Shown: positions 5,705-8,652 of the stretch, piece after piece
Layout: each line of letters opens with the position of its first letter
How positions within the stretch are numbered: position 1 is the stretch's first letter
Virus record (IMG/VR): IMGVR_UViG_2648501437_000024
Coordinates: 1-8,652 of that record
Direction: 5' to 3' (one strand)
Length of the DNA stretch: 8,652 bases
DNA from: a virus
Taxonomy: Duplodnaviria; Heunggongvirae; Uroviricota; Caudoviricetes
Position numbers and translations under genes: made by a program
The notes under the pieces: generated by a model
Told to the model about the DNA's origin: nothing
Database searches by the model: none
Seen by the model: the letters and a program-made list of their open reading frames with translations, nothing else

Positions 5705-5995
5705 TTATTCGGTTGTAACTTTTTTGATCAAGGCCACTCTACGATCAGGTGTTCTTGTGATGGTGGCAGTGAATCGTTTCGCTTGGATAGTAATGGTTTC
5801 GTTCTCCTTAAGTTGCCCGTAGCGAGTTTCCACCAGGGTACCAAGACGCCACAGACCATCATCGATACGTTTATGACTAGCAAATTTAATAAGCAACAGT
5901 TTTACGACTAACTGACCTACGTAAAAGGCGAATGCGACTCCGGCCGCTAAGAAATAGGTGGCCAACCACCAGTCCCAAGAAGTTAAATTGCTCAT
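5705..5995 (-). CDS. hypothetical small membrane protein (96 aa, hydrophobic N-terminal segment)
   Basis: Track ORF; AAGG RBS about 7 nt upstream; its ATG overlaps the TGA of the upstream 50-aa ORF (ATGA); WDWWLATYFLAAGVAFAFYVGQLVV looks like a transmembrane helix. Confidence 0.6.
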   Translation of the reverse strand: MSNLTSWDWWLATYFLAAGVAFAFYVGQLVVKLLLIKFASHKRIDDGLWRLGTLVETRYGQLKENETITIQAKRFTATITRTPDRRVALIKKVTTE

Positions 5996-6144
5996 TTTCT
6001 AACCTTTGTTTCATGAACTACCCGATACACACGCTTTCCGATGCACAGTGTTTTGGTTTTAAGTTCCTGCTTAATTAAATCACGACAGATGCCGAAGCCG
6101 ATAAGGAAGCCACCCATAAAAGCTAATGAGATGTATGGAATCAT
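5992..6144 (-). CDS. hypothetical small membrane protein (50 aa), below the ORF-track length cutoff
   Basis: Hand translation: MIPYISLAFMGGFLIGFGICRDLIKQELKTKTLCIGKRVYRVVHETKVRK; AGGAG RBS 7 nt upstream; ATGA overlaps with both flanking genes; its start carries repeat copy 3. Confidence 0.5.
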   Translation of the reverse strand: MIPYISLAFMGGFLIGFGICRDLIKQELKTKTLCIGKRVYRVVHETKVRK

Positions 6145-6146
6145 TT
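6130..6146 (-). repeat. copy 3 of the repeated motif (minus sense AAATGATTCCATACATC), containing the start codon of the 50-aa ORF
   Basis: 17-nt exact match to 5118-5134. Confidence 0.6.
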
Positions 6147-6356
6147 TAACACTCCTGATTCTACTAATTGCTGTAGCAATACTTTCCCTTTATCAGTTAA
6201 CTGGTAGTTGGCCGAACACTTCGTTTCAGAAACGTTTGCAACCAACCCTAAACGCTCTAACTTAGCTCGCGTTTTAGGCTTCCAGTACTCAGGGAACTCC
6301 GGCCACTTACTGATTTCATGAAGCGTTTCCTTCTCCCGTTTACTTAATACGATCAT
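6141..6356 (-). CDS. hypothetical protein (71 aa)
   Basis: Track ORF; strong AGGAG RBS 7 nt upstream of the ATG at 6356; stop overlaps the start of the 50-aa ORF. Confidence 0.6.
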   Translation of the reverse strand: MIVLSKREKETLHEISKWPEFPEYWKPKTRAKLERLGLVANVSETKCSANYQLTDKGKVLLQQLVESGVLK

Positions 6357-6519
6357 CCTTAATCTCCTTCAGGGTGTTGGTTATTTCTACAATGCGATAA
6401 ATACGACCGCGTCTTTCTATAACACCGCTTTTAATGTAGTCATTGATGCAACTGGACATCACCACAATACCTATGAAAAAACCAACTGCTAAAAATGCAA
6501 TCATCCAGCCGAGCATCAT
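6340..6519 (-). CDS. hypothetical small membrane protein (59 aa), below the ORF-track length cutoff
   Basis: Hand translation: MMLGWMIAFLAVGFFIGIVVMSSCINDYIKSGVIERRGRIYRIVEITNTLKEIKDDRIK; GGAG RBS about 7 nt upstream, inside the ligase 3' end; overlaps the 71-aa ORF by 17 nt in another frame. Confidence 0.4.
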   Translation of the reverse strand: MMLGWMIAFLAVGFFIGIVVMSSCINDYIKSGVIERRGRIYRIVEITNTLKEIKDDRIK

Positions 6520-7838
6520 TCTTTATCTCCGATTCGATCTTCTGTATCGCGTAAGCAACGCGGCCATTTCAGTCGTGGGTGGCGTAAGCTGCCGTCCGGT
6601 GTTTTCTCGTGACAATGAACCTCGACAATACGACCACGGTACTTCTCTTTGTTGTTCCAGATCTCATCCAGATATTTATGCTTAATGCCGCTCGCACGAA
6701 CGATGACGCCGTTTTCAAGACGAATAACAATTTTTCCAAGTGTGTTGGCAAAACCAGAGTCCGGGTCGCCCGGCTCAAAGTCGATAATTTCACCATCTTC
6801 GGAATCTTCGTCTTTTAACTTCCACCAGCTGCGGGTACGTTTAAACTCGTAAACAGAGTTCGGATCTTTGCCCATCTCCCCTTCTTCGTTATCGTCCAGG
6901 CGTTTCATGAAGCGTTCGATGAAGTCTTCGTGGCTATGGATGATATAGAACGGATGCAGGTGAATGTCTTGTGTGTAGCCTTCACTGCGATCGTTTTTGA
7001 ACAACGCCACCAGCATAGCCAGGCGCTCTTTCAGCTTCATACCTGTCTTTGCATACTCTTTGGATTTAGCCTGTGCTCGCCATTCCGGTAGGAAGAAGTC
7101 GAAAACATGATAAATAGCGCCAATTGCCTGCACGTTCTTTTTGCGCAATGCAGATACGGACTGGTTAAATGAACCGGCAGTTCCTTCACCATCGAAGAAG
7201 ATGTGTTTGTGGCCTGAAAGTTTGCCTAATTCGAGCATGGCTGGCTTTAGGTGATCGAGAGACGTGATTGGATTACCAGTACGAGAAAGGAAGTTAACCT
7301 CTTCCTCGTCAACAATAACCTCGCAAATTACTCGCAAACCATCGAGCTTAAGACTGCCAATCATCGGCCATTTTGCTTTAGGATTTGGCTTGAAGGGGTA
7401 TTTGTCGCCTTTTTCTTTATACGGTGACGCCAGCTGCACCTCGAATTTCGGAATGGGATTTTCAAAAACCTTGTTGCATAGGCTAATCCCAACACCTGCT
7501 TTCGGGTCTTTTAAGAGGAAACGACGGAACACGTCCTGCCCATCGGCGCACATTGACGCCACGATAGACTCAACAGCTGCTATTGCTGCGTTCCCCGTTA
7601 GCTCGCGAGAGGCCAGCTTATTCAGTACATCAATGGCTTTTTCGTCACTTGGGATGGACTCACTAAGCGGCTCTGCCACTTTGTATTTCTTTACCCCAAA
7701 ACGGATGAAAGGGTTGAGCATCAATGAAACCATGCTTTGCTCGAAGTCATCCATGTTGGCCAATGCCTCTTTTTTTGCATTGGTTCCCATAGCTTTCATT
7801 TCGTCCAGCTTATGCTTAAGTGCGATCAACTTTTTCAT
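6516..7838 (-). CDS. ATP-dependent DNA ligase (phage T4 gp30-like)
   Basis: 440-aa ORF; adenylation motif I SLKLDGLRV (KxDGxR); motifs FDGE, EGYTQDIHLHP and WWKLK; C-terminal LRHPRL (motif VI); RELTGNAAI and FLSRTGNPI resemble T4 ligase segments as recalled from memory; GGAGG RBS; ATGA overlap with the upstream gene. Confidence 0.9.
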   Translation of the reverse strand: MKKLIALKHKLDEMKAMGTNAKKEALANMDDFEQSMVSLMLNPFIRFGVKKYKVAEPLSESIPSDEKAIDVLNKLASRELTGNAAIAAVESIVASMCADGQDVFRRFLLKDPKAGVGISLCNKVFENPIPKFEVQLASPYKEKGDKYPFKPNPKAKWPMIGSLKLDGLRVICEVIVDEEEVNFLSRTGNPITSLDHLKPAMLELGKLSGHKHIFFDGEGTAGSFNQSVSALRKKNVQAIGAIYHVFDFFLPEWRAQAKSKEYAKTGMKLKERLAMLVALFKNDRSEGYTQDIHLHPFYIIHSHEDFIERFMKRLDDNEEGEMGKDPNSVYEFKRTRSWWKLKDEDSEDGEIIDFEPGDPDSGFANTLGKIVIRLENGVIVRASGIKHKYLDEIWNNKEKYRGRIVEVHCHEKTPDGSLRHPRLKWPRCLRDTEDRIGDKE

Positions 7839-8317
7839 TGTTGTTTTACCTCCATATGTTGATCGATTTGCTCATGTGTTTCTTTTGTTGTTTCTTCAAG
7901 CAACGCCGCATACACGTCAGTGATCGCTGTTTGTGATGTGGTGCTCTTCTTAACCATGCTATTAATCGTTACACCGTCACGTTTTCGTTTTAAAGTTCTG
8001 GCTTGTTTATTCTGTTCTTCAACCTCCTTAATGAGCGCGGTCATATCTTCGAAATACAGAGATTCTCCTTTACGAATCTCTTCAACCATCATTTTTAACG
8101 CCTTGCATTTGCCTGCTTTGATAGCGGTTGCGCACGACTGGAATGAAGTTCGAGGAAGACGGTTTTCTTTGAAGGCAAGAATGGTGTGCTGGCAAACGGA
8201 GTAGCTGCAATATGCCGACTCACCGTTTATCTTTACTTCCTCACAACGAAGTGAATAACCATTATTTCCTGAAATAGAGGGGATTTTTGACAAATCAGCT
8301 TTCACAACTACCGCCAT
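7835..8317 (-). CDS. hypothetical Cys-rich protein (160 aa), translationally coupled to the ligase
   Basis: Track ORF; five Cys in the N-terminal 75 residues (C-x11-C-x4-C-x19-C-x8-C), then a charged, helical-looking C-terminus; its stop overlaps the ligase ATG. Confidence 0.6.
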   Translation of the reverse strand: MAVVVKADLSKIPSISGNNGYSLRCEEVKINGESAYCSYSVCQHTILAFKENRLPRTSFQSCATAIKAGKCKALKMMVEEIRKGESLYFEDMTALIKEVEEQNKQARTLKRKRDGVTINSMVKKSTTSQTAITDVYAALLEETTKETHEQIDQHMEVKQQ

Positions 8318-8372
8318 AAATAATCTTGTACTTACCTATCGTTATTTGCGTAAAAAACGACGCGCGGAGAGA

Positions 8373-8588
8373 TTACCAACTTCCCCAGCTAATCATCTTG
8401 CGCTGATCGCTTTCTAAGCGATAGGGGACAAGAAGCTCTGTGACATGATTGGTGGCGTATGATTTAGCCTCTTGCTCTATCATCGGTAATTCGTTAGCAA
8501 TCCTGACCATCTTCCCAGCAAACTCCGCCATTACGCCATCACATGCCTTCCCAGCATCAATATGAAGTGGCACACTGAATTTGGCCAC
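8373..8588 (-). CDS. hypothetical protein (71 aa), probable GTG start
   Basis: Track ORF; the first codon is GTG with no clear Shine-Dalgarno, so the start is uncertain. Confidence 0.4.
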   Translation of the reverse strand: MAKFSVPLHIDAGKACDGVMAEFAGKMVRIANELPMIEQEAKSYATNHVTELLVPYRLESDQRKMISWGSW

Positions 8589-8652
8589 CTGAACAGAGGT
8601 GATATGCTCACCTCAGAACAACACAGGTGCTCCAATGAAAAAAAGAAATTTC

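Follow-up and report, generated by a model that had tools for sequence, protein, structure and literature searches.

What might a string of very small, overlapping reading frames contribute to a phage-plasmid when it directly follows a DNA ligase gene? The question is raised by a stretch of 8,652 nucleotides (nt) from a virus of the Caudoviricetes (positions 1 to 8,652 of IMG/VR record IMGVR_UViG_2648501437_000024; the whole stretch is called the window here), in which four open reading frames, ORF1 to ORF4, occupy positions 5705-6519. A first-pass annotation of the window had described a chain of four small ORFs of 59, 71, 50 and 96 amino acids (aa), linked by ATGA or 17-nt overlaps and each with a Shine-Dalgarno (SD) sequence, and its coordinates, junctions and motifs all proved correct. 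Comparative sequence data indicate that the four are almost certainly genuine protein-coding genes under purifying selection. We see about an even chance that they encode an accessory, lytic-phase inner-membrane module that alters host inner-membrane function, either for host take-over or for exclusion of incoming DNA. The ligase gene and the four ORFs are as follows.

6516-7838, minus strand: ATP-dependent DNA ligase, 440 aa (Pfam DNA_ligase_A_M, E 5.8e-13), directly upstream of ORF1
6340-6519, minus strand: ORF1, 59 aa, predicted transmembrane (TM) segment at about aa 3-23 (nt 6451-6513); phrog_4381
6141-6356, minus strand: ORF2, 71 aa, predicted soluble and basic (net +4) minimal winged helix; phrog_4054
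5992-6144, minus strand: ORF3, 50 aa, predicted TM segment at about aa 2-20 (nt 6085-6141); phrog_6302
5705-5995, minus strand: ORF4, 96 aa, predicted TM segment at about aa 9-36 (nt 5888-5971); phrog_4507

At positions 5600-6600 the window shares 99% identity with Escherichia phage Cyrano (OV696614), which is one and the same element as plasmid pLF82 carried by E. coli LF82. Identity is 75-77% with Salmonella phage SSU5 and about 70% with phage-plasmids of Klebsiella. Judging by its identity to Cyrano and SSU5, the source of the window is an SSU5-type phage-plasmid. The window holds a CobT-like gene, a helix-turn-helix (HTH) repressor, an integrase, a glutaredoxin, three tRNAs and the DNA ligase, which is annotated as such in Cyrano, SSU5 and pJN2-26. 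ORF1-4 make up the translationally coupled 3' end of a replication-gene cluster (helicase, primase, two unknowns and ligase). The ligase gene overlaps ORF1 by 4 nt (ATGA), ORF1 overlaps ORF2 by 17 nt, and the ORF2/ORF3 and ORF3/ORF4 junctions are again 4 nt (ATGA). All four ORFs start with ATG, preceded by GGAG, AGGAG or AAGG.

The window contains 89 ORFs of at least 30 aa, and the length of an ORF is by itself within chance. We conclude that ORF1-4 are almost certainly real because of how they have evolved. Among 10 to 13 diverged orthologs per gene, the ratio of nonsynonymous to synonymous substitution rates (dN/dS) is 0.115 for ORF1, 0.069 for ORF2, 0.170 for ORF3 and 0.101 for ORF4, with dS at about 1-1.7 and thus saturated. 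The value for the ligase is 0.040, and nonsynonymous evolution of the small genes is about three times faster than that of the ligase. ORF lengths are kept across relatives, and 48 distinct complete cassettes from 101 fetched loci share the junctions (4 or 1, 17, 4 or 1, and 4 nt), the ATG starts and the SD motifs. Each ORF also has a full-length PHROG match that covers the whole profile (phrog_4381, E 1e-39; phrog_4054, 5e-45; phrog_6302, 8e-37; phrog_4507, 6e-59). These four families consist of SSU5-like hypothetical proteins, all labelled 'unknown function'. By tblastn, 532 plasmids in PLSDB carry ORF1, 637 ORF2, 682 ORF3 and 653 ORF4, nearly all uninterrupted and full-length (478-670 plasmids per gene have full-length matches), and 758 sequenced plasmids carry the cassette, whole or in part. 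Frame-disrupting differences among relatives, which the first-pass annotation had named as refuting its reading, were not seen; gene losses are clean deletions. Antisense ORFs (e.g., 5699-5911 and 6041-6265, plus strand) were treated as non-coding, their frame and length varying among relatives.

The genes themselves are already in public records as hypothetical proteins, and all four are annotated in SSU5 (SSU5_045-048) and pJN2-26. What is new here is their characterization, namely that ORF1 and ORF3 are paralogs, that ORF3 and ORF4 are a core pair, which membrane topology is predicted, how ORF2 is folded, and that the genes are not expressed in the lysogen. The suspicion that the shortest ORFs could be missed by automatic annotation was justified, as ORF1 is unannotated in the Cyrano record and ORF3 is often omitted by the Prokaryotic Genome Annotation Pipeline (PGAP) in several plasmids. 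ORF4 orthologs have been named 'C-type natriuretic protein' by PGAP/RefSeq. Our analysis gave no support for this name, a literature search found no use of it in a plasmid context, and it looks like a propagated mis-annotation. The literature on SSU5, pHCM2, pMT1 and 'C-type natriuretic protein' yielded no functional studies of ORF1-4.

Three of the four proteins are very probably membrane proteins, judged by hydropathy. The maximal Kyte-Doolittle values over 19 residues are 2.55 for ORF1, 1.84 for ORF3 and 2.00 for ORF4, compared to 0.21 for ORF2. A crude sum of insertion energies, on the scale of Hessa et al., gives -2.25 kcal/mol for ORF1, +2.1 for ORF3 and +1.8 for ORF4, compared to +13.8 for ORF2. 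By these measures ORF1 has a clear predicted transmembrane helix and ORF3 and ORF4 have probable ones. The proposal that three of the proteins begin with a probable transmembrane helix thus holds, the hydrophobic N-termini being those of ORF1, ORF3 and ORF4. According to the positive-inside rule, the basic flank of a helix stays in the cytoplasm. Because these proteins have no lysine or arginine (K/R) ahead of the helix and 3-4 among the 15 residues that follow, they are probably single-pass with the N-terminus out and the C-terminus in (N-out/C-in). Nearly all of each protein would then be cytoplasmic, including tails of net charge +3 (ORF1), +7 (ORF3) and +6 (ORF4), and no more than 1-8 residues would protrude on the outer side of the cytoplasmic membrane.

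ORF1 appears from sequence comparison to be a diverged paralog of ORF3, because the two align over 50 residues without a gap, because their profiles match (hhalign P 6e-5) and because a 55-aa protein of distant relatives resembles both (hmmsearch with ORF3, E 3e-11; pairwise BLASTP with ORF1, E 1.5e-5). The residues in common are M2, G13xxxG17 within the helix, K30, R39-x-Y41-R42 and T47. In ORF1, G13xxxG17 and an RRGR(I/V)YRI(V/I) tail are conserved; ORF3 has the GxxxG motif and a very basic tail ending in GKR(V/L)YRVVHET. The helix of ORF4 carries an invariant G19xxxA23xxxG27 and is followed by an invariant juxtamembrane motif, FAxxKRIDDxLWRLG (F38-A39, K42-R43-I44-D45-D46 and L48-W49-R50-L51-G52). 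An AlphaFold2 model of ORF4, of low confidence (predicted local distance difference test score, pLDDT, 62), has a helix at residues 6-61 and then a beta-hairpin at 67-80. ORF4 has no significant relation to ORF1 or ORF3 by hhalign (P 0.014-0.12); a resemblance among the beta-hairpins is visual only and we make no claim of it.

ORF2 is a different kind of protein. Its predicted structure has the core fold of a minimal MarR-like winged helix, at a Foldseek E of only 0.1. ORF2 is not a member of the MarR family. It lacks the N- and C-terminal dimerization helices of MarR proteins (71 aa compared to about 140), and the MarR and HTH models of Pfam stay below cut-off (the best, EarA and HTH_45, each score 13.7 bits, where 22 and 25.5 are required). 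PADLOC gave only weak matches of ORF2 to the C-terminal winged helix of Csa3/CARF proteins. ORF2 resembles many uncharacterized winged-helix proteins of 60-75 aa from phages. The first-pass annotation was silent on this fold, on the ORF1/ORF3 paralogy and on the predicted cytoplasmic bulk of the membrane proteins.

Searches for relatives of known function returned little. Scans of the four proteins against Pfam and NCBIfam found nothing above cut-off (the sub-threshold noise consisted of Dicty_CAD, UBA_BIRC2-3, UPF0154 and SSO5209), and PADLOC had no matches at all for ORF1, ORF3 and ORF4. With PHROG included, no homology to a described family of exclusion, defence or lysis proteins turned up for any of the ORFs. 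Among 5.8 billion proteins, word-indexed searches returned 42, 28 and 158 clusters, all from SSU5-like elements of Enterobacterales, with nothing distant or annotated. The ORF4 profile, run exhaustively against 1.84 billion representatives, found 18, again only SSU5-like, and profiles of ORF4, ORF1/3 and ORF2 gave only chance-level matches among PDB sequences (E at least 0.2).

The locus is modular. In about one third of the E. coli relatives ORF1 is cleanly deleted and the ligase gene is coupled by ATGA directly to ORF2; the E. coli records of PLSDB number 139 for ORF1 and 218-220 for ORF2-4. In one Klebsiella lineage, ligase residues 1-75 are fused to the last 12 of ORF2, so that ligase, ORF1 and ORF2 are lost, and ORF3 and ORF4 remain intact and coupled. 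A second Klebsiella lineage keeps ligase and ORF2, has lost the ORF1 helix in-frame, and has a tail-anchored protein of 129-138 aa in place of the ORF3 tail and ORF4. Relatives at 74% ligase identity have only the ligase, the 55-aa ortholog of ORF3 and an ORF4 homolog of 96-97 aa, with overlaps of 1 and 8 nt. Relatives at 56-57% ligase identity carry unrelated cargo after the ligase: a ParE toxin and RelB-HTH antitoxin in Xenorhabdus, and DUF4365 with an unknown 256-aa protein in Morganella. In Buttiauxella an ORF3/ORF4 chimera is followed by a dual-specificity phosphatase and an ars operon (arsRDA). The cargo after the ligase lies at the following positions of the fetched loci.

5478-6188 of locus L104: Xenorhabdus
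5404-6926 of locus L105: Morganella
1-2377 of locus L013: Buttiauxella

Because of these deletions, the relatives at 74% ligase identity and the swapped cargo, sequence comparison points to ORF3 and ORF4 as an old, always-coupled core pair and to ORF1 and ORF2 as a later insertion between ligase and ORF3 in the SSU5/pHCM2/pMT1 clade. By the same comparison, the post-ligase site appears as a cargo hotspot of the wider SSU5-like group, and the small genes as accessory and individually dispensable. In Yersinia pestis pMT1 (locus L005, 1-3903), ORF1-4 are intact between a ligase gene disrupted by IS100 and caf1R of the F1 capsule locus.

ORF2-4 are essentially untranscribed when Cyrano resides in the lysogen as a plasmid. 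In a re-analysis of RNA sequencing (RNA-seq) data for LF82 in LB medium, log2(fpkm+5), where fpkm is fragments per kilobase per million reads, was 2.45/2.66 for the ligase gene, 2.97/2.32 for ORF2, 2.32/2.32 for ORF3 and 2.83/3.00 for ORF4, and a value of 2.32 corresponds to zero reads (PMC9928086, supplementary table). The terminase and capsid genes of the Cyrano lysogen were similarly low, and the repressor was at 6.75/6.39 (PMC9928086). CYRAN_36-39 are absent from the listed morons, defined as at least 5-fold above the prophage background (PMC9928086). Other genes of the element are active: its toxin-antitoxin genes (KacT, RelE and HicAB) are expressed 6-60 fold above background in the lysogen, and CYRAN_43, encoding a 184-aa hypothetical protein (Cyrano 40268-40822), is the top-expressed Cyrano feature at 723-fold above background (PMC9928086). 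The CYRAN_43 segment is absent from the window. A simple consensus scan found no sigma-70-like promoter in 4900-8652 on either strand, compared to 5.8 +/- 2.5 in shuffled sequences, and this absence fits a long read-through transcription unit. Because of the silence in the lysogen and the lack of a promoter in this interval, we conclude that ORF2-4 share the regulation of the replication genes and are not expressed while the element is a plasmid.

This silence bears on several proposed functions. The first-pass annotation had suggested superinfection exclusion, immunity or lysis control. Genes that are off in the lysogen cannot shield the resident plasmid, which makes prophage-borne immunity or exclusion unlikely. 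Exclusion of that kind would call for expression in the lysogen to be protected, where CYRAN_37-39 lie at only 2.3-3.0 on the log2 scale (PMC9928086). A moron (lysogenic-conversion) status was rejected on the same silence of ORF2-4. A role as the main lysis cassette was rejected from genome position: Cyrano has a canonical holin, endolysin, Rz and Rz1 set at 26.7-28.2 kb, and the small-gene cassette, at 37.4-38.2 kb, is 10 kb away. For protection of the lysogen, for the main lysis function and for plasmid addiction alike, a tested feature contradicts the role, and we disfavor any reading of the module as a determinant of prophage immunity or of lysis. Of the earlier proposal, exclusion early in lytic growth is left, and it is weighed below.

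How might a membrane module of this kind work? We postulate that it is transcribed only after the element has left its repressed state as a plasmid, and that re-initiation of ribosomes at the overlaps would yield ligase-like amounts of protein. The three hydrophobic helices would insert N-out/C-in and could pack through their small-xxx-small faces (GxxxG and GxxxAxxxG), forming a small hetero-oligomer or docking on a host membrane protein. The basic beta-hairpin tails would face the cytoplasm, and in the SSU5 clade the small winged-helix protein ORF2 would be added. The effect would most likely be on host inner-membrane function in lytic growth, as a take-over or as exclusion of DNA at the cytoplasmic face. 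Small bitopic regulators that bind larger membrane proteins through their helix (for example SPO1 gp56 and the bacterial MgrB- or AcrZ-type proteins) have a similar format, with 50-100 aa and one helix whose small-xxx-small faces are conserved and suited to helix packing. However, they have no sequence relation to ORF1, ORF3 or ORF4, and here three such proteins are co-translated. The proteins resemble these regulators, as well as T4 Imm and Sp and phi29 p16.7, in format but are members of none of these groups.

Several observations weigh against the module that we postulate. The insertion energies of ORF3 (+2.1 kcal/mol) and ORF4 (+1.8 kcal/mol) are only marginal by the crude sum, and one Salmonella variant of ORF3 has charged residues inside the helix. 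The structure model of ORF4 is of low confidence and was kept out of the fold search. The RNA-seq data include no induced sample and ORF1 is unannotated in them, and the timing within the lytic cycle is deduced from gene position only. Because no ORF is homologous to any characterized protein, the target and the effect are guesses. Membrane insertion, topology, complex formation and the target are inferred, whereas the coding status, the coupled arrangement, the conservation, the paralogy, the fold of ORF2, the lysogen silence and the dispensability are shown by the analysis.

Exclusion of secondary phages early in the lytic cycle is one specific version of the explanation that we favor and does not contradict it. 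Imm and Sp of phage T4, small membrane proteins made early in infection, exclude T-even phages that superinfect the cell, and Sp acts in the periplasm. ORF1, ORF3 and ORF4, if made soon after induction or infection, could similarly block DNA entry or genome delivery at the inner membrane. Like the T4 proteins, they would be small phage proteins of the inner membrane that are accessory and not expressed from a prophage. They evolve fast and are restricted to one phage lineage, and the hotspot elsewhere holds conflict-type genes (the ParE toxin-antitoxin pair and DUF4365). However, there is no sequence or profile similarity to Imm or Sp, and the exclusion and defence families of PADLOC, Pfam and PHROG are unmatched. 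Almost nothing of the proteins is predicted to be exposed outside the cytoplasm, in contrast to the periplasmic Sp, and the idea leaves no role for ORF2. Protection of the resident plasmid state is ruled out by the lysogen silence. We regard this specific version as unlikely.

The company of replication genes raises the possibility that the proteins organize phage-plasmid replication at the membrane, with the basic tails, possibly together with ORF2, binding DNA or the replisome and tethering it. The membrane-anchored protein p16.7 of phi29 organizes phage DNA replication in this way and is encoded with replication genes; phi29 p1 would be a further parallel. p16.7 has an N-terminal transmembrane helix followed by a helical, basic cytoplasmic part, as predicted here. 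The cassette is coupled to the ligase gene at the end of a helicase-primase-ligase cluster, its tails have net charges of +3 to +7, ORF2 is a basic winged helix, and the ORF3-ORF4 pair follows the ligase even at 74% ligase identity. However, each gene is dispensable in some lineages, including isolated phages, Klebsiella elements keep ORF3-4 without the ligase, and at 56-57% ligase identity the site holds the unrelated cargo described above. ORF1, ORF3 and ORF4 have no sequence relation to p16.7 or to a DNA-binding domain in Pfam or the PDB, and ORF4 is shorter than p16.7. A replication organizer thus seems quite unlikely.

Control of lysis timing, by an accessory holin, an antiholin or a lysis inhibitor, is very unlikely. 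The format is holin-like (small, with one transmembrane helix and a charged, basic C-terminus), but it is generic and insufficient for membership. The holin families of Pfam and PHROG are unmatched, the four genes lie in the replication cluster with no lysin neighbor, and the lysis set of Cyrano is complete and belongs to the late region. A different fate for ORF1 alone would be that of a lipoprotein, with a signal peptide at 1-23 cleaved before Cys24 to leave a lipid-anchored periplasmic peptide of 36 residues. A relaxed lipobox can be read in the conserved V/I-M/T-S/L-S-C24, and every ORF1 ortholog has Cys24. But the N-region is without lysine or arginine, the strongly positive segment after the helix favors a C-terminus inside, and the aligned position of the paralog ORF3 has no lipobox, so we hold this fate to be highly improbable. 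Finally, an addiction-like toxin-antitoxin module, with hydrophobic membrane toxins and ORF2 as regulator or antitoxin to stabilize the plasmid, recalls the ParE/RelB-HTH pair at the same site in Xenorhabdus and, in its single-helix peptides of about 50 aa, the type I toxins. But it would need expression in the plasmid state, where ORF2-4 are silent and the real toxin-antitoxin genes are active, and with no promoter of its own in 4900-8652, genes coupled to the ligase, ORF3-4 persisting without ORF2 and a predicted topology opposite to that of Hok, it is hardly credible.

Downstream of ORF4, in the interval of about 770 nt that separates it from tRNA-Asn, the window contains a second conserved element, a candidate structured RNA preceded by a promoter-like sequence.

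5100-5694 (core 5290-5694), minus strand: candidate large structured RNA between ORF4 and the tRNA genes
5687-5682 and 5664-5659, minus strand: promoter-like TTTACT and TAAGAT, 17 nt apart, right after the ORF4 stop; 8 of 12 matches to consensus, below the threshold of the scan

The putative RNA is conserved at 78-100% in 98 of the 101 loci, more than the adjacent coding DNA, and its indels are not multiples of three. A 605-nt fold has a minimum free energy of -207.5 kcal/mol (z = -6.8), and in all sequences folding is better on the minus than on the plus strand. Across the 89 pairs, 99.1% of the cells pair, compared to 31-48% in slid controls; four compensatory pairs fall in one helix, and several G-U pairs are invariant. 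No Rfam family matches it, the only hit being a 14-bit fragment of beta_tmRNA at 5529-5622. It is kept in lineages without ORF4 and in those without ligase, ORF1 and ORF2; near the ligase of the Buttiauxella, Xenorhabdus and Morganella loci no copy was detected. Both promoter-like hexamers are invariant or nearly so in 28 non-redundant relatives (the second as TA[A/T]GAT), and the spacer varies in sequence and not in length. This suggests that the RNA and the tRNAs are a transcription unit of their own, with their own promoter. In pMT1, the caf1R F1 capsule locus abuts a truncated form of the structured-RNA region.

We give only a slim chance to a further proposal, in which ORF3 and ORF4, joined by ORF1 and ORF2 in the SSU5 clade, form a novel membrane complex whose basic hairpin tails bind nucleic acid on the cytoplasmic side, either replicating phage-plasmid DNA or the downstream RNA. 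If this were true, the ligase-ORF3-ORF4-RNA-tRNA neighborhood would be a unit that localizes replication or an RNA particle to the membrane in lytic growth.

Two further features of the window lie beyond this interval.

4522-4706, minus strand: near-threshold full-length match to STnc100 (Rfam RF02076), 44.8 bits against a gathering threshold of 47, E 2e-8
3385-4293, plus strand: 302-aa ORF, phrog_35492 (unknown function), with a weak match to an 'anti-restriction nuclease' PHROG (E 0.003)

The segment that holds the STnc100-like match, about 182 nt long (4578-4759), lies between tRNA-Thr and tRNA-Ser and is missing from Cyrano, whose two tRNAs are 8 nt apart. For the 302-aa ORF, Pfam and PADLOC gave no match. 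This ORF lies in a segment, 3212-4293, that replaces the Cyrano gene CYRAN_41, and positions 2904-2987 likewise replace the CYRAN_43 region, making another variable cargo site.

As small phage genes without a known function, ORF1-4 are nothing out of the ordinary, and nothing about them overturns expectations. Their status as real genes corrects database records in which ORF1 and ORF3 are often missing and one gene is mislabelled as 'C-type natriuretic protein'. Phage-plasmids of the SSU5 type are common among clinical E. coli, Klebsiella, Enterobacter and Salmonella, with pHCM2 of S. Typhi as an example, and in Yersinia pestis as pMT1. For this family, ORF3 and ORF4, with ORF1 and ORF2 as later additions, offer a compact and testable module for studying how such elements treat the host membrane after induction.

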